30,823 bases of DNA from Campylobacteraceae bacterium (GCA_031266555.1 JAISAU010000015.1:1-30823); one strand, 5' to 3'; positions 1 to 21,528 are shown, numbered from the stretch's first letter. Numbers and translations: made by a program. The notes: a model not told the origin generated them from the sequence alone.

Positions 1-175
1 CGCTAACGCTCCTCGCAATGACGAAAATTTTTCAAACTTATATATTCAATTCCTACATGTAAGACATTTTCACACTTATAGTTTGCTATGCAAACTTCGT
101 TTGCTCGCAATGACGAAATTACAATTCTTTGTCGTTATGAACTAAACGTGGCAATCCACTTTTTCATCATTGTGA
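1..175. repeat. Two degenerate, oppositely oriented copies of a ~35-nt box with core CTCGCAATGACG / CGTCATTGCGAG, plus a TACATGTAA motif at 54-62. The window starts inside the first copy.
   Basis: cgctaacgctcctcgcaatgacg (1-23) matches the box at 1650-1683 and 1812-1845. gtcgttatgaactaaacgtggcaatcc (~132-160) matches the inverted copy gtcattgcgagcgaagcgcggcaatcc at 1697-1730. Confidence 0.5.
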
Positions 176-259
176 ATAATTTGTATTGTTACATGCAAGG
201 TATAAGCAAATAGAGTTACAAAAAGCAGAATATAAATTATTCGTATTTGTATCGTTATA

Positions 260-350
260 TGTAAAGCTTGGATTGCTTCGTCGCTAATGCTTCAAGCTCA
301 TGACGGAAAGAGCGGAGCGACTATACGCCGCTCCTGTCGCTCTATCTGTT
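260..350 (-). repeat. 3' flank module of paralog copy 1: a TATATGTAAAG motif, a diverged GGATTGCTTCGTCGCTAA box, and a GC-rich hairpin (AGAGC..GGAGCGG-N9-CCGCTCC..GCTCT) directly after the stop codon. It may act as a terminator.
   Basis: The same module recurs at 1801-1899 after copy 2 and as a hairpin-only version at 3815-3872 after copy 3. The stem complementarity is visible in the sequence; the downstream U-tract is weak. Confidence 0.5.
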
Positions 351-351
351 T

Positions 352-1218
352 TCACACATAGCTGCTAACCACAAATGTTAAGCCATTTATATATGCTTTA
401 CCATCGCCAGTACCATCGTTACCTATTACATTTATAGTAACTCCTTGCGGCATCTCTTGATTGCCATAGTGAAGATAAGTAATAAATACGCGAGTTATTT
501 CCGTGCCGTTTATATCTACTACAGGAGGGTAAAACATTGCTCCAGATTTAAAATCTTTATTAGATTTTTGCATTATAGTGGTATATTGTATGCCATTTAT
601 GGAATATAAGACGTTAATTATACCGTATCCGCTCCAATTGGGCACTGAAGGTGTTAATTTATAGCTAAAATTTATAGAGCTATTAATATCAACGGTATAA
701 TTTTCTAATGTAAATAAGTCTGCAGCTTTTATAGTTTTTTTAAATAGCGTAATCAACATCCGACAAGTTCCCATAGGATCATCTTCTGGTGTAAGACTAT
801 AATATTGCAACGAACCTCCATTATTTTTGCCTGTAAGAGATTGCAAAAAAGAGCTTGAAAATATTTGCTCCATTACTTGCTTTCCGCCGTTTCTATTATT
901 ATCAACAAAATCCAAAGCATGCGCCAAGGTTTGCCCTGCAGTACCTACAAACACAGCTGCATAATTATTGTTTATATCGTAAGGATCATCTGTATCTGTT
1001 CTTATCTCAAACATGATATTGACATAAACATAATCGAACATACTCCAGTCTATATCTGTCAAATCAGGATTCATATTTTGCTCAAGCTCTAATATAACCT
1101 CGTTAAGAGGTAATTCCTCGCCATCTAATTCAACCTCCCTGAACATATTATTGATTATTGTGTAATCCTCAATAAGCTTTTCAAAACTCATCGTACCGTC
1201 ACAACATAAATTTCTCAT
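352..1218 (-). CDS. Paralog 1 of a tandem three-member family of unknown function. It has conserved N- and C-termini, a variable core and no signal peptide.
   Basis: 288-aa ORF. Shares MRNLCC[DN]GTMSFEKLIE[DN]Y, HALDF[VI]DNNRNGGKQVM, ITLFKK, NYTVDINSS, PP[VI]VDINGTEI and the C-terminal NTGDGKAYINGLTF[VI]V..YV blocks with the ORFs at 1900-2760 and 3873-4748. AAGGAG-type RBS (ggagacaagacgATG). Confidence 0.85.
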   Translation of the reverse strand: MRNLCCDGTMSFEKLIEDYTIINNMFREVELDGEELPLNEVILELEQNMNPDLTDIDWSMFDYVYVNIMFEIRTDTDDPYDINNNYAAVFVGTAGQTLAHALDFVDNNRNGGKQVMEQIFSSSFLQSLTGKNNGGSLQYYSLTPEDDPMGTCRMLITLFKKTIKAADLFTLENYTVDINSSINFSYKLTPSVPNWSGYGIINVLYSINGIQYTTIMQKSNKDFKSGAMFYPPVVDINGTEITRVFITYLHYGNQEMPQGVTINVIGNDGTGDGKAYINGLTFVVSSYV

Positions 1219-1563
1219 CGTCTTGTCTCCTTGTTATTTATAAATACATTAGGCTTAGCTTGTTATAGCATTTACCGCCACTTACCGACATCGTTTTATT
1301 TATCTTGCTTTGTTTTTTATGTAGGATTTGACAAAGTTTCAGATAATCCGACACTCTCGTTGGCTTGCCGAGTTGTGAGTTATTTGTTTATTGTAAAAGT
1401 TATGTTGTTTTATCCAATGTATTTGTACCTCCGAGACTAAGGTTAAGAGATTTATAACTCTTTTTTTACATTATATTTATAGGATACTCTTTAATTTCTT
1501 AAAATACTCTTTTGTTTTTATTGGCTTATTTTGTAAATGAATGCAAAAATATGTTACATGTAG
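1219..1563 (-). promoter_or_regulatory. Conserved leader/promoter region of paralog 1. It contains a TACATGTAG motif (~1554-1563), a direct repeat ATACTCTT-N13-ATACTCTT (~1484-1515), a -10-like TATAAAT (~1448-1456) and a ~220-nt putative 5' UTR.
   Basis: The same architecture and many identical sequence blocks are found upstream of copies 2 (2761-3146) and 3 (4749-5234). Confidence 0.45.
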
Positions 1564-1624
1564 TACAGCGAATGACGGCAGAGCATAAAATAATTTTTGA
1601 GATATAAAAGTTGTTTATAACATT

Positions 1625-1745
1625 ACACGTAAAGCGTTTTGTACTTCTGGATTGCTTCGTCGCTAACGCTCCTCACAATGACACAATTATTTTTCGTCAT
1701 TGCGAGCGAAGCGCGGCAATCCACTTCTTTGTCACCGTTATATGT
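1625..1745. repeat. Box repeat pair: a direct copy at 1650-1683 and an inverted copy at 1697-1730, flanked by TACACGTAAAG and TATATGTAAGAC motifs.
   Basis: ggattgcttcgtcgctaacgctcctcacaatgac ... gtcattgcgagcgaagcgcggcaatcc together form a ~80-nt imperfect inverted repeat. Confidence 0.55.
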
Positions 1746-1800
1746 AAGACGTAAACTAGGTCCTGAACTATTAGTGCTTTGGTATAAACGCACAAATAAA

Positions 1801-1899
1801 CGTTACATGTAAAGATGGATTGCTTCGTCGTTAATACTCCTCGCAATGACGGAAGGAGCGGAGCGACTGTAACGCCGCTCCTGTTACTCTATCTATATT
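1801..1899 (-). repeat. 3' flank module of paralog copy 2: TTACATGTAAAG, the box, and a GGAGCGG/CCGCTCC hairpin.
   Basis: Near-identical to 260-350. Confidence 0.55.
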
Positions 1900-2760
1900 T
1901 CACACATAGCCGTCAACTACGAACGTTAAGCCATTTATATATGCTTTACCATCGCCAGTATTATTACCATACACAGCTATGTTAATTCCTTGCGGCATTG
2001 CTCGGTCATCATAGCTGTAAGAAATATATACATTGACTATTTCCGTACCATTTATATCTACTACAGGAGGAGTAAATTCTTTTCCACCAGTAAAATCTTT
2101 ACCAGATTTCCTGGCCATAGAAGTATACTGTACATCATTTATAGAAAATAAAACATTAACTATATTATATCCGTTCCACATTGGTACTGAAGGCGTTAAT
2201 TCATAACTAAAATTTGCAGAACTATTAATATCAACAGTATAATTTCCTACTGGAAATACATCCATAGCATTAATAGGTTTTTTGAACAGTGTTATTGCCA
2301 TAAAGCAATCTCCCGTCGGGTTACTTTCCGGCGAAAAACTATAGTATCTTATTGTGCTACCGCTTTTATTTGCAAGAGCTTGCAAAAAACTGCTTGAATA
2401 GACATTGCTCATCACTTGTTTACCACCATTTCTATTGTTGTCTATAAAGTCAAGTGCGTGACTAAGAATAAAACTTGCATGTGTAGTGGCAACTAATAAA
2501 ACAGCATAATTATCGTCTATATTATAAGATTCGTCTACACTACTCCTAATCCCAATGGCAGCATTTACATACACATAATCAAACATGGTCCAATTAATGC
2601 TTTGTAAATTAGGGTTGATTTTTTGTTCCATTTCTAAAATATACTCATCGAGGTTTATTTCTTCATCATAGTCAAATATTACTTCTGAGTTTTCGACTAT
2701 AGCGTAATTCTCAATAAGTTTTTCAAAACTCATTGTACCGTTACAACATAAATTTCTCAT
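1900..2760 (-). CDS. Paralog 2 of the three-member family.
   Basis: 286-aa ORF with the conserved termini and internal blocks described for 352-1218. Same RBS context. Confidence 0.85.
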   Translation of the reverse strand: MRNLCCNGTMSFEKLIENYAIVENSEVIFDYDEEINLDEYILEMEQKINPNLQSINWTMFDYVYVNAAIGIRSSVDESYNIDDNYAVLLVATTHASFILSHALDFIDNNRNGGKQVMSNVYSSSFLQALANKSGSTIRYYSFSPESNPTGDCFMAITLFKKPINAMDVFPVGNYTVDINSSANFSYELTPSVPMWNGYNIVNVLFSINDVQYTSMARKSGKDFTGGKEFTPPVVDINGTEIVNVYISYSYDDRAMPQGINIAVYGNNTGDGKAYINGLTFVVDGYV

Positions 2761-3146
2761 TGTCTTGTCTCCTTGATTTTTTTAATAAAAAGATTAGGTT
2801 CCGCATATCACAGCATTCACCGCCACTTACCGACATCGTTCTATTTATCTTAGCTTTGTTTTTTCATAACCGTAGTTTTGATTTAACAAAGTTTCAGATA
2901 ATCCGACACTCTTATTGGCTTGCCAAGTTGTGAGTTATGATTTGTTATAGACATTATGTTGTTTTATGTAACGTATCCGCACCTCCGAGATTGAAGTAAA
3001 GTGATTTATAATATTTTCTTATATTATTTGTAGGATACTGCTTCGTCTCTTAAAATATTCTTTTATTTTTTAGTAGTTTATTTATATTTGTTGTTATTTT
3101 TTTAAACTTTTTCCAGCAAAATTGCAAAAGTTATGCTACATGTAGC
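2761..3146 (-). promoter_or_regulatory. Conserved leader/promoter of paralog 2, with CTACATGTAG at 3137-3146.
   Basis: Alignable by eye to 1219-1563 (ccgccacttaccgacatcgtt, cagataatccgacactct, ttggcttgcc, gttgtgagttat, taggatact, gtaaatga, gttacatgtag). Confidence 0.45.
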
Positions 3147-3266
3147 AAATAAATAGCTAAAAACTTGTCAAATTAGATAGCAAATTAGAGTATGTTTCTT
3201 TTTATGTATTGTATAAGAATTTTTAAGTATTTTTTAAATCAGCGGAGTTACAAAAAACAGATGAAT

Positions 3267-3527
3267 TTAATCATATATATTTTTTCTGTGCGCTATTTCC
3301 AAAACTAAAACAATTAACTTGTCGTCTTGAATTTCGCATATCAAACGATAGTCATTTACACGATAACGCCAAAAACCTTTTAAATTACTTGATAATGCTT
3401 TTCCGCGACTTTTTGGATTTTCAAGAGTTTCTAACTCCTCTTTCCACTTTTTAATCGATTTTTGTACTGAATTGTCAAGCTTTGATAATTGCTTTTCTGC
3501 TTTTGGAGTAAACTCTACGCTCGTCAT
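3267..3527 (-). CDS. relE: RelE/ParE-family toxin.
   Basis: 86 aa. The C-terminal YRLICEI...LIVLVLEIAHRKNIY block is the typical RelE/ParE signature. It overlaps the upstream antitoxin by 4 nt. Confidence 0.8.
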   Translation of the reverse strand: MTSVEFTPKAEKQLSKLDNSVQKSIKKWKEELETLENPKSRGKALSSNLKGFWRYRVNDYRLICEIQDDKLIVLVLEIAHRKNIYD

Positions 3528-3745
3528 AAGCCAAGCTTTTTAAAAACTTCGTTAGCAGATATTGATTTTTCTCCGCTATCTTTGAACTCTTTCAAAGCCT
3601 TTACAGCTCTATAGTAATCTTCCAAATCCTCTAAATGCGTACTTATAGCCTCTTTGATGATATGCGCTTTTGAAACTTTTGCCTCTTTGCTGATAGTTGA
3701 CAATCTATCCTCCATATCTTTTGGCAGTCTTATAGATAAAGGCAT
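3524..3745 (-). CDS. relB: RelB/ParD-type ribbon-helix-helix antitoxin.
   Basis: The N-terminus MPLSIRLPKDMEDRLSTIS is an RHH strand-helix. The ORF track begins 2 codons earlier at a TTG; the ATG at 3745 has an AAGGAG RBS 6 nt upstream. Confidence 0.75.
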   Translation of the reverse strand: MPLSIRLPKDMEDRLSTISKEAKVSKAHIIKEAISTHLEDLEDYYRAVKALKEFKDSGEKSISANEVFKKLGL

Positions 3746-3757
3746 AAACAACTCCTT

Positions 3758-3786
3758 AATAATACAATGTATTCGTCATTATACAC
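3758..3786 (-). promoter_or_regulatory. relBE promoter: TG-TATAAT (-10, complement of 3778-3786) and a 13-bp palindrome AATACAATGTATT (3761-3773) between the -10 and the RBS, probably the operator for autorepression.
   Basis: Read directly on the minus strand as agtgTATAATgacgAATACATTGTATTattAAGGAGttgtttATG. Confidence 0.5.
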
Positions 3787-3814
3787 TATTTTTCGCAAAA
3801 CTGTTGCGGCGTTT

Positions 3815-3872
3815 TGAGCTTTTAATAAAGAACGGAGCGGCTATGACACCGCTCCTGTCGCTCTATCCGTTT
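3815..3872 (-). repeat. 3' flank hairpin of paralog copy 3 (GGAGCGG-N-CCGCTCC). The box part is missing.
   Basis: gaacggagcggctatgacaccgctcctgtcgctctatc matches the hairpin portion of 260-350 and 1801-1899. Confidence 0.5.
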
Positions 3873-4748
3873 CTACACATAGCCGTCAACTATGAATGTT
3901 AAGCCATTTATATATGCTTTACCATCGCCTGTATTGTTACCATTTGTATATATAGTAACTCCTTGCGGCCTCGTTTCATCGCTATAGGGGATGTAAGTAA
4001 TATATATGTGTGTTATTTCTGTACCATTTATATCTACTATAGGTGGGTCAAAACTTTTTTCAGCTTCAAAATATTTACCACCAGACTTATGAACCATAGC
4101 ATCATATTGTATGTTATTTATCAAAAATACGACATTAACTGTATTGTATCCGCTCCACGTTGATACAGAAGGTGTTAATTCGTAACTAAAATGTATGCTA
4201 TCATTAATATCAACGGTATAATTTCCTAACCCGAATATATCCGTAACATTTATAGGTTTTTTGAACAATGTTATTGCGAGCCAGCATCGTCCCATCGGAT
4301 TATTTTCCGGAGCGTAACTATAATATTGCAATGAACCTCCTTCGTTTTTGCTTGTACAAGTTCGCAAAAAAGAGCTTGAAAATATTTGCTCCATCACTTG
4401 CTTGCCACCGTTTCGATTATTGTCAACGAAATCTAGAGCATGCGTTAAACCTGATTCTTCTGCAGTACCCAAAAGAACAGCCGCGTAATTGTCGTTTATG
4501 TCGTAAGGATTATCCATATCAGTTCTTATCTCAAATGCAGTATTTATATAAGCATAATCAAACATACCCCAGTCTACGTCTGTCAAGTTAGGATTTATAT
4601 CTTGCTCAAGTTTTAATATCAGCTCGTTAAGATATATTCCCTCATCATCCAAACTTACATTTTCAGTTAAGCTTCCAATAACAACTATCGCATAATCCTC
4701 AATAAGTTTCTCAAAACTCATTGTACCGTCGCAGCATAAATTTCTCAT
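3873..4748 (-). CDS. Paralog 3 of the three-member family.
   Basis: 291-aa ORF with the conserved termini and blocks described for 352-1218. Confidence 0.85.
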   Translation of the reverse strand: MRNLCCDGTMSFEKLIEDYAIVVIGSLTENVSLDDEGIYLNELILKLEQDINPNLTDVDWGMFDYAYINTAFEIRTDMDNPYDINDNYAAVLLGTAEESGLTHALDFVDNNRNGGKQVMEQIFSSSFLRTCTSKNEGGSLQYYSYAPENNPMGRCWLAITLFKKPINVTDIFGLGNYTVDINDSIHFSYELTPSVSTWSGYNTVNVVFLINNIQYDAMVHKSGGKYFEAEKSFDPPIVDINGTEITHIYITYIPYSDETRPQGVTIYTNGNNTGDGKAYINGLTFIVDGYV

Positions 4749-5234
4749 TGTCTTGTCTCCTTGATTATTTAATAAAATATTGGGTTCCGCTCGTTATAGC
4801 GGTCGCCGACACTTACCGACATCGCTCTATTTATCTTGACTTTGTTTTTTGTGACCACAATTAATTTGCAAAGTCTGACTTAACAAAGTTCCAGATAATC
4901 CGACACTCTCGTTGGCTTGCCAAGTTGTGAGTTATTGTTTGTTGTAGACATTATGTTGTTCTATCCAATCTATTCGCACCTCTGAAATTAAAATAAAATA
5001 ATTTATAATTATTTTTTAATTATCTTATTAATATCAGGGTACTCTTTAGTCTCTTAAAATACTCTTGTATTTTTTTCTTAGCTTATATGGATTAGTTACT
5101 ATTATTTGAAATTTTTCTCGTAAATGAGTGCAAAAAATTAGATTATTAAAATATAAAATGGACTATTGTTTATTTTGGATAGCGTTAACAGAATAGATAT
5201 TTTTTTGAATTTGAGGCAAATATGTTACATGTAG
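4749..5234 (-). promoter_or_regulatory. Conserved leader/promoter of paralog 3, with TTACATGTAG at 5225-5234. It is ~90 nt longer than the other two leaders.
   Basis: Shares the same blocks with the two other leaders. Confidence 0.4.
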
Positions 5235-5268
5235 TGCGATAAATAACAATGGAACGCAAAATGATTTT

Positions 5269-5982
5269 TTAAGTTTGAATTTTCAACACGCTAAAAATAT
5301 TGTCGCAAGATTTTACAATTAATTCTTTAGCATTTATAATGGTATTTTCATACTCTTTAGCAGGTTGAATGTATTCTATATCGCGCCTATATTTGCTCAT
5401 GTCAAATGTTTTTAATGCTTTATATATAGTTTTTATATCGTTTTCGTTTATCGCTTCTTGTTTAAGCAATTTATCGAGTATATTTTTATCGTTGTGAATA
5501 GCAACGGCTATATCGGCTATATCTCTTGATTTATTTTGCGAACCTCTATGTACTATTTTCTTTGCCAATATATCTTCTATACTTTCAATATAAATGTTAT
5601 ACTTGAATAACTCTTTCGATGTGTCTACCAAAGGTTTTGATATAAAATCTTGAGCTACTAAAATATCGACTTTTATGTTATCTTTTGTCATAAATCGTAC
5701 ATGATGGTTTAAATCCTCTATGTAATCGTCTGACTTGAAATATCTGCTTTCTTCGAGCCAAAATCTTGGTCTTATGCAATCAAGCACTTGAGGGTCTGTC
5801 GTAAAAATATCTACATCATAGCTTTTTCTATGTTGAAAATAGTATATGGCAAGAGCTGTACCACCTCCGAAACGCAACAGCGATAAATCCTTGTTCGGCA
5901 AAAGCTCTATGCATTCGTCCAAAAAATGATTTAGAGCGTTTATTTGTTCTTTGTATATATTTTTTATCTCACAAATTTGCAT
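5269..5982 (-). CDS. AbiEii/DUF1814-family nucleotidyltransferase, a putative type IV toxin.
   Basis: 237 aa. The N-terminal RFGGGTALAIYYF...RKSYDVDIFT block matches the AbiEii nucleotidyltransferase fold signature (GGTAL plus acidic DxD). Confidence 0.65.
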   Translation of the reverse strand: MQICEIKNIYKEQINALNHFLDECIELLPNKDLSLLRFGGGTALAIYYFQHRKSYDVDIFTTDPQVLDCIRPRFWLEESRYFKSDDYIEDLNHHVRFMTKDNIKVDILVAQDFISKPLVDTSKELFKYNIYIESIEDILAKKIVHRGSQNKSRDIADIAVAIHNDKNILDKLLKQEAINENDIKTIYKALKTFDMSKYRRDIEYIQPAKEYENTIINAKELIVKSCDNIFSVLKIQT

Positions 5983-6205
5983 ATAATACTTTGCTTATCT
6001 GTTTCATAGGTATATTGTGAATTTTTGCAAACGCTTCTATCTCTTGTGGTAAAGCTTCCTCCCTAATTGTATCAACTATGTATTGCTCAATATTATTTTT
6101 AGTTTTTCCATGCAAAAAAATATCCGCTATTTGCTTGCCCGTTAAATGTTTCTTTTTATCACCAATGGAGCAGTTAGCAGTTGCTATAAGCATTGCGTCT
6201 GTCAT
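5969..6205 (-). CDS. Small protein encoded upstream of, and overlapping, the AbiEii-like gene. It is the putative cognate antitoxin but is much shorter than a canonical AbiEi.
   Basis: 78 aa. It overlaps the downstream gene by 14 nt. A promoter sits immediately upstream. Confidence 0.5.
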   Translation of the reverse strand: MTDAMLIATANCSIGDKKKHLTGKQIADIFLHGKTKNNIEQYIVDTIREEALPQEIEAFAKIHNIPMKQISKVLYANL

Positions 6206-6225
6206 TTTAAATCCTTTAAAATAAC

Positions 6226-6255
6226 ATTGTATTCCAAAAAAATATAAAAAGTCAA
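6226..6255 (-). promoter_or_regulatory. Sigma70-like promoter for the two-gene AbiE-like operon: TTGACT-N18-TACAAT on the minus strand.
   Basis: -35 is the complement of 6250-6255 and -10 the complement of 6226-6231. An AGGA RBS lies 7 nt before the ATG at 6205. Confidence 0.4.
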
Positions 6256-19626: not shown

Positions 19627-20010
19627 TTAGCTATTTTTACAATCTTTTACAAAAATTTTTATTTTTGTTTTAACACAATCTATATTTTCATATGGAGTAT
19701 TTTGAAGTACAAAATTATCTACAACATCACTTATGGTAATTTTTAAAGAAATGAACTCTTTTTGATGTTTTTTCTTTAAAAATGACATATCTATAAATTC
19801 TAAAGTGGTTAATATTTCTTCTCTTTTTAGAGGTCTACGCTTTTTGTCAGTTGACTTTAGATCTTCAAGCTTCGTAACAATTTCAGCAATAGTATGTATT
19901 ACGTTTTTTATATTTGATTTAGCTGTCTTGCGTTGACTATAAAGGTGATATGCTGTTGGTATTATAACTCCATAAATGAAGCTCGCAACATCTATGCCCA
20001 TAATGGTCAT
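19627..20010 (-). CDS. Small hypothetical protein with an N-terminal transmembrane segment. It is the last gene of the AT-rich three-gene island.
   Basis: 127 aa. GIDVASFIYGVIIPTAY is hydrophobic. The 4-nt overlap with the upstream gene suggests translational coupling. Confidence 0.55.
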   Translation of the reverse strand: MTIMGIDVASFIYGVIIPTAYHLYSQRKTAKSNIKNVIHTIAEIVTKLEDLKSTDKKRRPLKREEILTTLEFIDMSFLKKKHQKEFISLKITISDVVDNFVLQNTPYENIDCVKTKIKIFVKDCKNS

Positions 20011-20345
20011 TTTTTGCCTTCAATTTCATGTAAAACATATTCCATCATTTTTTTTTCAAAAATTTTACCTTTTTCAGTATCGTTTTTTACTTTTATAATT
20101 TTTTGAAATTTTTCTATACCATACAAAGCAGCAATTTGACCAAATGCTTCTGATAAAAAAGATGGACCGAATGATAAAAGAACATCGTCAACATTTAATT
20201 CTATCGGCATATTCTTGTCAAAATATTGTTTTAAAACGGTTTCTCTAAACTCTTCTCCAGAAAATTCGCCAATTTCTTTAAAACGTGGTCCAGGATAAGG
20301 CGTAAATTTCTCAGCAAAATTATATTTTTCTATAATATTAGACAT
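20007..20345 (-). CDS. STAS-like small protein of the DUF4325 type (putative partner-switching antagonist).
   Basis: 112 aa. SGEEFRE...ELNVDDVLLSFGPSFLSEAFG resembles the STAS/anti-sigma-antagonist core and my recollection of the DUF4325 consensus. Confidence 0.5.
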   Translation of the reverse strand: MSNIIEKYNFAEKFTPYPGPRFKEIGEFSGEEFRETVLKQYFDKNMPIELNVDDVLLSFGPSFLSEAFGQIAALYGIEKFQKIIKVKNDTEKGKIFEKKMMEYVLHEIEGKK

Positions 20346-20358
20346 GTTTTCTCCTTAA

Positions 20359-21528
20359 CTATCTAATTTTCATTTTCCAACATATTAAAAAGCCATCAAT
20401 AAACAATGGCATTATCTTTGTTTCTTCTGTTTCTTGTTCATCATTGAACTTAAAATGATATTTGCCATTCCCCGACATAACAATCATTTCGCAACTATAT
20501 CCACACTTCTGCGCGAATTCTTTAAATTTTTTAAATCCATATCCTCTTATTCTATCTCGTTTACCTTTATATTTAGGTAATTCATCATTAACAAGCATCT
20601 TTATTATATCACTATCCGACTTAGCTTTATTAGCGATTTCTCTGAAAAAACTTCTAATGGTCTCATTAGAGTTATACTCTAGAGTTTTTCTTAATCCAAC
20701 TCCATAATCTCTAAAAGCAAACTCCAATGTATTCTCTATGGTATCATAATGACCACATAGCCACCACTTATTTTTCATTTTTAGCGGGATGTCTTCTATG
20801 TACGCATGTTCGCATGTATTGGCCATTGCCTCTGTAATAGCATCATCAAAATAATTTTGTATTTGCAAAGACAGCATAAAACCGATCTTTGAGTTTATAA
20901 ATTTCCTAATCTCTACAATATCTTCGCCCAAGTGTTTATTGTTAGATTTTATTTTTAAAAAGTAATCATTTTTAACACTTTGTGATACTGAATATGGTTT
21001 ACTTATATTCCAATACTCCCAATATCCAGATTCAAGTAAAACGTAACGTACTTTATCCAATGTTTTATTTATACCATATTTTTCATTGTATTTTAAAATG
21101 CTCTCGTCATCAATTTTTAATTTTAACTTAATTGAATTGCGCAATATATCTATTTTTGATACCAGCCACAACAAACCGTCTATAGAAATAGATTTAAGAT
21201 GCTTATGATTTATAATTATAGATTTTTGTGTAGATTTGCAATATCTTTCTATTTTTTTATTAAAAATAATTAAACTACTCTCATCATTTACAAAAAAATT
21301 TATTTTTTGTGGAATTTCTATAATTCCGATTTCTAGTTTTTTATTTATATCTTTATTTCCACATTTTTTTCTCCCTTCATATCTTTTTAAAAATTTAAAT
21401 AATTGTGGTCTAATTAATCCTTTGCAATTAGGTTCTTTACTTAATAGCTTCTTCCATTTTTTCCATTTTTTTCTCTTAATATATCTTTTAATTTTATGTT
21501 GTGTTAGAAATTTTTCTCGTATGGTCAC
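20359..21528 (-). CDS. GHKL-family (HATPase_c) ATPase with an unusual, highly basic N-terminal region.
   Basis: 389 aa. N-box ITEAMANTCEHAY, G1 RDYGVGL, G2 RGYGFKKF and G3-like MSGNGKY in the C-terminal third. The N-terminus KRYIKRKKWKKWKK is extremely basic. Confidence 0.6.
   Translation of the reverse strand: MTIREKFLTQHKIKRYIKRKKWKKWKKLLSKEPNCKGLIRPQLFKFLKRYEGRKKCGNKDINKKLEIGIIEIPQKINFFVNDESSLIIFNKKIERYCKSTQKSIIINHKHLKSISIDGLLWLVSKIDILRNSIKLKLKIDDESILKYNEKYGINKTLDKVRYVLLESGYWEYWNISKPYSVSQSVKNDYFLKIKSNNKHLGEDIVEIRKFINSKIGFMLSLQIQNYFDDAITEAMANTCEHAYIEDIPLKMKNKWWLCGHYDTIENTLEFAFRDYGVGLRKTLEYNSNETIRSFFREIANKAKSDSDIIKMLVNDELPKYKGKRDRIRGYGFKKFKEFAQKCGYSCEMIVMSGNGKYHFKFNDEQETEETKIMPLFIDGFLICWKMKIR

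Follow-up and report, generated by a model that had tools for sequence, protein, structure and literature searches.

Three truncated copies of a putative PM2-like spike gene in a toxin-antitoxin island of a Campylobacteraceae bacterium

Introduction

The described systems closest to the locus reported here are the tailless, membrane-containing viruses of the PM2 type and their prophage relatives. Within the Vinavirales, genes for membrane proteins and a GNAT protein lie between the capsid gene and the gene for a penton-containing spike (Yutin et al., PMC9502842). The penton of vibriophage NO16 has a single-jelly-roll (SJR) base at residues 2-89, a flexible link and a protruding distal SJR (PMC13552765), and elements of the PM2 group with a double-jelly-roll (DJR) capsid protein, 7-11 kb in length and carrying a GNAT gene, have been described in Sulfurimonas, another genus of the Campylobacterota (PMC11531552). 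Here we analyse a stretch of 30,823 nucleotides (JAISAU010000015.1:1-30823; hereafter the window), which is one whole contig of a Campylobacteraceae metagenome-assembled genome (MAG; GCA_031266555.1). It carries a tandem array of three related genes, whose products of 288, 286 and 291 amino acids (aa) very probably correspond to the distal two-thirds of a PM2-like viral spike.

Two further kinds of system bear on such an array. Fv1 and Fv4 of mice are endogenous viral structural genes that were co-opted as restriction factors, and superinfection exclusion by prophages is also known. Invertible tail-fibre cassettes of the Mu/P1 type, shufflons and silent pilS cassettes are without promoter, ribosome-binding site (RBS) or start codon of their own and need a recombinase or an expression locus. 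We know of no bacterial co-option of a tailless-virus spike, and of no report of a stand-alone, triplicated spike fragment of a tailless virus retained by its host.

An earlier description made from the DNA alone (hereafter the sequence-only reading) had taken the array for a recently amplified and diversifying cassette of an unrecognised family, with secreted or surface variable antigens and polymorphic effectors among the candidates. The match to the distal two-thirds of a viral spike, the full-length relatives in PM2-like prophages and the setting in an island of toxin-antitoxin (TA) and abortive-infection genes all go beyond that description.

Results

Three tandem genes lack the N-terminal domain of their relatives

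Calling of open reading frames (ORFs) placed the three genes exactly where the sequence-only reading had put them, in tandem and all on the minus strand (Table 1). They are diverged paralogues with a pairwise protein identity of 63-67%, and match one another at E = 1e-98 to 1e-110, far above chance. The shared blocks that had been claimed for them were borne out by alignment: the N-terminus reads MRNLCC[DN]GTMSFEKLIE[DN]Y, the internal blocks HALDF[VI]DNNRNGGKQVM, NYTVDIN[SD]S and PP[VI]VDINGTEI, and the C-terminus TGDGKAYINGLTF[VI]V..YV. Only the final residues need correction, copy 1 ending in SSYV (...VVSSYV) and not in GYV. An AAGGAG ribosome-binding site stands 8 nt 5′ of Met1 in 3/3 copies, and Met1 was therefore taken as the start instead of Met10, the start given by JGI for two of the copies (copy 2 would then have 277 aa).

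Repeat analysis gave a start-to-start spacing of 1539-1555 bp for copies 1 and 2, in agreement with the period of 1542 bp noted before, and of 1973-2004 bp for copies 2 and 3. The latter is larger, by ~450 bp, because a ParE and ribbon-helix-helix (RHH) gene pair lies between these two copies. The repeated unit exceeds the coding sequence (CDS), reaching from ~320 nt 5′ of the ATG to ~50-100 nt 3′ of the stop codon. Copy 1 lies only 351 nt from the end of the contig and therefore the array may exceed three copies. The exact products of the copies are not on record in other assemblies, and extension past window position 1 failed.

Neither the three copies nor their full-length relatives produced anything other than sub-threshold noise in scans of Pfam, NCBIfam, PHROGs and PADLOC, so that the family is as unassigned as it had first appeared. 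In 5.8 billion proteins searched by word index, the only matches were the three copies and P0004, a protein of 409 aa with 39% identity from another Campylobacteraceae MAG (hereafter the sister genome), which was obtained from the gut of Glyptotermes, a lower termite (PMC11707648). When 1.84 billion cluster representatives were scanned exhaustively with an HMMER profile, ten proteins matched, and a further profile search added four more that have only the N-terminal domain in common. Profile matches of the family (E = 2e-53 to 1e-10) span profile positions 1-289, and P0005 matched the window by tblastn at E = 1e-44 to 1e-46.

The relatives P0004-P0009 and P0011 are 405-417 aa long and carry a well-conserved extra N-terminal part of ~125 aa that is missing from the window copies. 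The copies align to residues 125-409 of P0004, and copy 1 also to residues 128-411 of P0005. Among the proteins found, the short form of ~290 aa occurs on this contig alone. P0010 and P0012 had been considered as independent short forms, but proved to be pieces of a single prophage spike gene that is split. Its two halves are ORFs of 200 aa (penton and start of the distal part; L061 1328-1930) and 191 aa (1984-2559), the same split being present in L062, and the 200-aa half is identical in two independent assemblies. The break in L061 falls inside the middle domain, which points to a disrupted gene and against a split between modules.

An AlphaFold2 model of P0004 built from a 14-sequence family alignment reached a pLDDT of 79.8; a first model from four sequences (pLDDT 63.5) had been poor across the N-terminal half. 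In the better model an 8-stranded beta domain (residues 1-87) is followed by a disordered linker (88-132), an alpha/beta domain (~133-270) and a beta-sandwich (278-409). The window copies start where the disordered linker ends and are therefore without the predicted ~87-aa N-terminal jelly-roll domain, no remnant of which was found in the window by tblastn. By analogy this domain would be the penton domain that anchors the spike in the capsid. The window copies would then consist only of the alpha/beta middle domain and the C-terminal beta-sandwich, the parts that would project from the virion. The beta-rich fold that had been proposed thus applies to the C-terminal sandwich of the models, the middle domain being alpha/beta. 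Foldseek against BFVD gave TM-scores of only 0.1-0.2. The motif most conserved across the family is D-[FY]-I-D-N-N-x-N-x-x-K-x-Q.

None of the copies has a hydrophobic stretch fit for a transmembrane helix or a signal peptide, the top Kyte-Doolittle mean over 19 residues being 1.44, as the sequence-only reading had also concluded. They are rich in asparagine (9-11%) and strongly acidic. With no export signal, they do not fit a secreted or surface variable antigen, and they hold no toxin domain of the kind that a polymorphic effector would have.

In P0013 (478 aa, L005 6520-7956), P0014, P0015 and P0016 the conserved penton-like N-domain is joined to an unrelated C-terminal part. In this virus group, therefore, the distal module of the spike can be exchanged.

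Full-length relatives occupy the spike position of PM2-like prophages

Seven members of ~410 aa could be traced to their contigs (P0005-P0009, P0011 and the split P0012/P0010), as could P0013, with which they share only the N-domain. The seven come from termite-gut metagenomes, and all, P0013 included, stand at one and the same place of one compact prophage module of ~10 kb. In the most complete example (L003) a tyrosine integrase is followed by an HTH_36 protein like phage replication initiators, tiny ORFs, a 201-aa protein, a 218-aa protein matching a packaging-ATPase PHROG (phrog_2666, E = 9e-18) and further tiny ORFs. Next comes a 320-aa protein that passes the Pfam cut-off for PF25513 (Viral coat protein P2 C-terminal domain; double-jelly-roll capsid). 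Proteins of 75, 121, 153 (GNAT) and 112 aa separate it from the family gene, and the module closes with proteins of 185 and 132 aa. This arrangement is collinear with the late operon of PM2 (h, P9 [218 aa], P7, P2, P3, P4, P8, j, P1 [spike], P5, P6) and agrees with the published gene order of the Vinavirales (PMC9502842). From the position in the module and the domain architecture we therefore assign the family, with good though not full confidence, to the spike/penton (P1) of a new lineage of PM2-like prophages.

When every protein of four prophage modules was compared with the window and with the P0004 locus (L001) by tblastn, only the spike-like gene was found in either. The window genes are thus, as far as sequence comparison can tell, orphan viral spike genes, with no other viral gene left in the window. 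A neighbour-joining tree puts the three window copies in one clade (100% bootstrap), sister to P0004 (100%), with the prophage-borne genes outside; the comparison of sequences points to a single origin of the three. In the MAG of the window itself, which may be incomplete, the family search found no full-length member.

The spike and capsid proteins of prophages L003, L005, L006, L053, L054, L056 and L058 have no match in GenBank phages or IMG/VR, and the capsid protein is recognised only by the Pfam profile PF25513. The prophages carrying the full-length family would seem to form a lineage of Vinavirales not described before. L003 and L005 have a His_Phos_1 gene in common on the right flank, and the integrase of L003 lies at the opposite end, adjoining a LysE gene.

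The array lies in a variable island of toxin-antitoxin and abortive-infection genes

The P0004 locus is syntenic with the window, the Fer4/CCG, HemN, DUF2603, OTCase and ALAD genes showing 89-94% protein identity, and in both genomes a variable island adjoins the Fer4/CCG gene. The island of the window holds the three short spike genes, the ParE/RHH pair, and an AbiEii gene with a small partner ORF, which bound the array on its upstream side. The island of the sister genome holds one full-length orphan spike gene, RelB/YafQ and AbiJ (E = 1e-78). There (L001 3669-9183) a response-regulator gene and a 46-aa ORF come before the spike gene (5018-6247), and ORFs of 161 and 81 aa, then RelB/YafQ and AbiJ, come after it. 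The 161-aa and 81-aa ORFs and the other unassigned ORFs of L001 match no gene of any prophage module.

The copies are old, under purifying selection and partly mosaic

Among the copies, dS is 0.74-1.26, dN 0.21-0.27 and dN/dS 0.21-0.31 (Nei-Gojobori). Five flanking housekeeping genes compared between the window and the sister host genome gave a dS of 0.6-0.9 and a dN of 0.03-0.05. As the dS of the copies is like that of the hosts, the duplications date from about the time when the two hosts separated. Moreover, the low dN/dS shows that the copies are under purifying selection and have been kept intact, even though they change at the protein level 5-6 times faster than the housekeeping genes. 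A recently amplified, diversifying cassette is therefore not what these values describe. Synonymous sites are saturated between the copies and P0004, which is therefore not a simple orthologue of any window copy.

The copies do not diverge evenly along their length, but the contrasts are modest: pN in windows of 30 codons ranges from 0.07 to 0.38. Only two such windows have dN/dS > 1, both in the comparison of copies 1 and 3, and in at least one of them this is because dS is locally low (pS 0.08, last 30 codons) and not because dN is raised. The suspicion that the copies exchange sequence proved well founded. In a three-sequence site-pattern test, columns +117 to +426 group copies 1 and 3 (78/123 informative sites), with a maximum chi-square of 36.3 that was reached in 0/200 permutations; elsewhere the unit is star-like. 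The copies have therefore exchanged sequence by gene conversion or recombination.

Two cassette mechanisms were considered and set aside. Among the proteins scanned with Pfam, which were part of the window's ORFs, there was neither an integrase, as expected of integron cassettes, nor a reverse transcriptase, as expected near the targets of a diversity-generating retroelement. Each unit has a leader of ~320 nt and, on inspection, its 3′ element is a GC-rich hairpin of 34-44 nt without attC core motifs. Differences between the copies run along the whole gene, at a dN/dS of 0.2-0.3.

A ~35-nt REP-like element (GTCATTGCGAGGAGCGTTAGCGACGAAGCAATCCA) is confined, within the window, to the 3′ flanks of copies 1 and 2, with degenerate inverted copies near 105-150 and 1700-1730. 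It gives rise to spurious short ORFs (...DCFV..PRNDG...). The element could have driven unequal crossing-over, and it may be the reason for the contig break at position 1.

Conserved leaders and 3′ hairpins

As the sequence-only reading had stated, each copy has its own leader and 3′ hairpin. The conserved leader occupies ~310-340 nt 5′ of each ATG and is 76-79% identical overall (blastn and identity profile), rising to 82-95% from -200 to -80 and falling to 33-60% beyond about -330. Identity is also high at both ends of the CDS, at 90-95% over its first 40 nt and 85-95% over its last ~80 nt and the hairpin, and the interior is more diverged. Against the 76-95% identity of the leader, synonymous sites of the copies are only ~40-50% identical, and the leader is conserved more strongly than the protein downstream of it. 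From these identities the leader would be either constrained or homogenised.

At its 5′ end the leader has a direct repeat, GAGTAT-N14-[GC]AGTA[TC], with starts 20 nt apart, then TATAAAT-like boxes and a small hairpin (TTGGCAAGCCAA). A longer hairpin (TTATCTG-AAACTTTGTT ... AACAAAG-CAAGATAA) precedes the RBS, and its loop holds all of the length variation between copies, including an insertion of ~20 nt in leader 3. The evidence for a structured RNA is weak, this conserved hairpin with its variable loop being the sole suggestive feature. The leaders have no Rfam match, at the gathering score or at E up to 1.

Other accounts of the leader were tried. No small ORF is conserved across all three leaders: an ORF of 23 aa (MS[TI]TN[NH]NSQLGKP[TI]RVSDYL[KE]LC) occurs only in leaders 2 and 3, on the minus strand at homologous positions (2883-2954 and 4880-4951), whilst at this place leader 1 lacks an ATG and carries a 1-nt indel. 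The ORF differs between leaders 2 and 3 by 4 non-synonymous changes to 1 synonymous, and it is probably not a real upstream ORF. A decayed N-domain left no trace by tblastn. Neither the prophage loci nor the sequence 5′ of P0004 resembles the leader, and the AGAGTAT direct-repeat motif is absent from all loci compared; a single 36-nt AT-rich match inside the rep gene of L005 was taken as chance. A 30-mer core of the leader had no match in the metagenome collection, and the 45 metagenome and 3 IMG/VR matches of a 17-mer core are likewise put down to chance, none extending beyond 20-29 nt.

The 3′ hairpins of all three copies are stable, with dG of -20 to -23 kcal/mol and z of -3.5 to -5.3. That of copy 3 is the only one with a clear T-tail and the only one flagged as terminator-like. 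Set against the stem of copy 1, that of copy 3 has two-sided changes that keep the pairing (G.U to G-C, C-G to U.G).

Table 1. Coordinates of the array and its neighbours in the window
Feature	Position	Strand	Evidence and details
Copy 1 CDS, 288 aa; P1-like spike distal domains without penton	352-1218	-	ORF, alignments; NCBI MDR1285662.1
Copy 2 CDS, 286 aa	1900-2760	-	ORF, alignment, homology
Copy 3 CDS, 291 aa	3873-4748	-	ORF, alignment, homology
Leader 1	1219-1531	-	AGAGTAT direct repeat, TATAAAT boxes, variable-loop hairpin; RBS AAGGAG 1227-1232
Leader 2	2761-3083	-	RBS 2769-2774; homology with leader 3 to about 3129
Leader 3	4749-5086	-	RBS 4757-4762; homology with leader 2 to about 5135
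3′ hairpin, copy 1	309-343	-	GC-rich 8-bp stem and outer stem, ~9 nt past stop; dG -23.4 kcal/mol, z -3.8
3′ hairpin, copy 2	1856-1889	-	dG -20.0 kcal/mol, z -3.5
3′ hairpin, copy 3	3824-3867	-	dG -23.0 kcal/mol, z -5.3; T-rich tail
3′ flank of copy 1 with REP-like elements (1-32, 269-303)	1-303		
REP-like elements in 3′ flank of copy 2 (1648-1692, 1816-1860)	1648-1860		
ParE toxin (3267-3527) and RHH antitoxin (3524-3751)	3267-3751	-	PF05016, E = 9e-17; PF01402, DUF6290
AbiEii-type nucleotidyltransferase toxin (5269-5982) and overlapping 78-aa partner ORF (5969-6205)	5269-6205	-	PF08843, E = 4.5e-12; PADLOC AbiEii

Other features of the window

An 8-bp palindrome, TACATGTA, occurs at 20 sites in the window against 0.41 expected (54, 1555, 1804, 3137, 5226, 6352, 6380, 6422, 7855, 9697, 16352, 16384, 16419, 17585, 23909, 25660, 25711, 26751, 29462 and 30785). 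The sites are mostly intergenic, some form triplets at intervals of ~30-40 nt, and each cassette leader has one on its 5′ side. The motif would seem to be genome-wide and not tied to the cassettes, be it the site of a regulator, a sequence of the uptake type or part of a repeat element. A second low-GC patch (19627-21528, minus strand, GC 0.28-0.29) encodes a 389-aa protein without a Pfam match, a 112-aa STAS-like DUF4325 protein and a 127-aa ORF, and may be another small island of accessory or defence type.

Discussion

We propose that the three genes encode viral spike domains that the host has retained and makes as free proteins. Their location would be the cytoplasm, because they have no signal peptide or transmembrane segment and are strongly acidic. 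Unable to enter a vertex, such a spike fragment would compete with the viral spike for its partner or ligand in assembly or entry, the three diverged copies would cover different virus variants, and the leader would give regulated, possibly infection-responsive expression. The short proteins would act in the conflict between virus and host. For the combined statement, that spike domains of viral origin were kept by the host and that they interfere with viruses, we see the balance as even. Antiviral interference with related tailless viruses, judged by itself, is the most likely function that we can name, and is put forward tentatively. More doubtful again is the strongest wording, in which the bacterium has domesticated the outward-facing half of a tailless-virus spike as an immunity gene, with three diverged fragments that would intercept the partner or receptor of PM2-like viruses, on entry or during assembly, and so block their spread.

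A number of points weigh against this proposal. Synteny and architecture are the whole of the case for the spike identity: the family profile (A6) was aligned with PM2 P1 at an hhalign probability of only 0.14%, scans of IMG/VR found no homologue, tblastn with spike and capsid found none in 50,697 GenBank phages, and the profile had no meaningful match to PDB sequences. No model of PADLOC-DB 2.0 matches the three copies or P0004, only their neighbours being matched, and the defence role is therefore argued from guilt by association and from origin. No resident virus of PM2-like type is known for this MAG. Should oligomerisation need the penton domain, as it does in PM2, assembly may not be poisoned by a fragment that lacks it, and a cytoplasmic protein without export signal cannot mask a surface receptor. 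As to the leaders, minimum-free-energy z-scores of -0.9 to -1.2 carry no thermodynamic signal, covariation is confined to 1/66 pairs among just three sequences, and their conservation could partly stem from the gene conversion that is seen in the array.

The purifying selection and the expression signals would equally suit a host function unrelated to viruses, for instance the binding of a carbohydrate or another ligand, for which the TA and abortive-infection setting would be merely a general insertion hotspot. The fold is as similar to carbohydrate-binding modules as to viral proteins, and the family-wide D-[FY]-I-D-N-N-x-N-x-x-K-x-Q motif could be a ligand or metal site. We nevertheless think such a co-option unlikely. 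The distribution is very narrow, with ~10 proteins among billions and the short form on one contig, dN exceeds that of the neighbouring housekeeping genes 5-6 fold, and three diverged copies in a defence island suit a role in conflict better.

The exchange between copies raises another question, namely whether they are donor cassettes for a PM2-like virus, resident or incoming, whose spike gene would take them up by recombination and whose host range would so be switched, with the conserved ends serving as homology arms. Each copy, however, has its own RBS and ATG, a constrained leader and a terminator hairpin, none of which a silent donor needs. Moreover, protein identity to the known viral spikes is 36-46% and synonymous sites are saturated against P0004, too little likeness for homologous exchange with any known partner; the family search found no full-length partner in this MAG, and no recombinase or invertase gene lies nearby. 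What such a reservoir would explain are the conserved ends around a diverged interior, the significant mosaic tract, and the ease with which the distal part of the spike is swapped in the virus group, as in P0013. On balance we hold it to be rather improbable.

The 19 N-terminal residues, better conserved in both protein and codons than any other part of the CDS, could in principle dock on the penton base of a resident tailless virus, so that the products would act in trans as accessory spikes with added receptor specificities. The GP13 spike of NO16 does attach to a separate GP14 penton through a short N-terminal stalk (PMC13552765). In every related virus that we have seen, however, penton and distal domains form one polypeptide, the sole split gene (L061), broken within its middle domain, seems to be a disrupted one, and the window genes lie outside any prophage in a MAG for which no such virus is known; we give this idea little credence. 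That the array is inert prophage debris, duplicated by unequal crossing-over at the REP-like repeats and now without function, is already disfavoured by the data and very unlikely: no other viral gene is left, such repeats flank copies 1 and 2 and the family is rare, but the three ORFs have stayed intact at a dS of about 1 with dN/dS well below one, and start codon, RBS, hairpin and leader are conserved well above the neutral level.

If the proposal of host-retained spike domains acting against viruses is true, the array would be a bacterial counterpart of co-opted genes of the Fv1/Fv4 type and the first defence aimed at Vinavirales, viruses now thought to be abundant and yet poorly studied, bacterial resistance to which is almost uncharted. 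Should the fragments interfere, they would offer a simple example of a virion gene turned against its source and would show how distal domains fold and act alone; should they not, the locus would still be a case of an orphan viral gene surviving for long in a defence island. It also yields a new spike lineage, that of PM2-like prophages of termite-gut Campylobacteraceae, which lies outside four curated profile libraries. The array presents a natural truncation exactly at the linker between penton and distal parts, the fragment having then been retained, triplicated and selected in a chromosome. The surprising remainder is that three truncated spike copies, each with an unusually conserved leader, have been kept by a host in a defence island.

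Comparison with known systems

Set beside P1 of Pseudoalteromonas phage PM2 and the P1-like spikes of the Vinavirales (Corticoviridae, Autolykiviridae and related prophages), the relatives of the window genes stand in the same place, after genes for a P2-type capsid protein, membrane proteins and a GNAT protein and before genes of P5/P6 size, and in the model they share a small N-terminal jelly roll with projecting distal domains. They differ from PM2 P1 in showing no detectable sequence or profile similarity to it. The window genes differ further from Vinavirales spikes in having no penton domain, in lying outside a virus genome, and in being triplicated with leaders of their own. Of four features of the P1-like family, they lack viral context, penton domain and detectable P1 homology (3/4) and show one, homology to the distal domains of prophage-borne members (1/4); they are therefore derivatives, not members, of that family. 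By its published description (PMC13552765), the GP14 penton of NO16 is like the P0004 model in its SJR base of ~89 residues, flexible link and protruding beta domain, but the distal part is larger here (~285 aa, two domains).

With the tail-fibre and pilS cassettes the array has in common several diverged tandem copies of just the variable, target-binding part, conserved ends and exchange between copies. Unlike those cassettes, the window copies are complete and separately terminated genes with a long leader, and no recombinase gene lies nearby. From Fv1 and Fv4 the locus differs in that the virus concerned would be a tailless, membrane-containing one, the host is a bacterium, and the antiviral role is one that we infer. 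It is like them in that a virion-protein gene has been kept without the rest of the virus, has been under selection, and exists as several diverged copies in an antiviral genomic setting.

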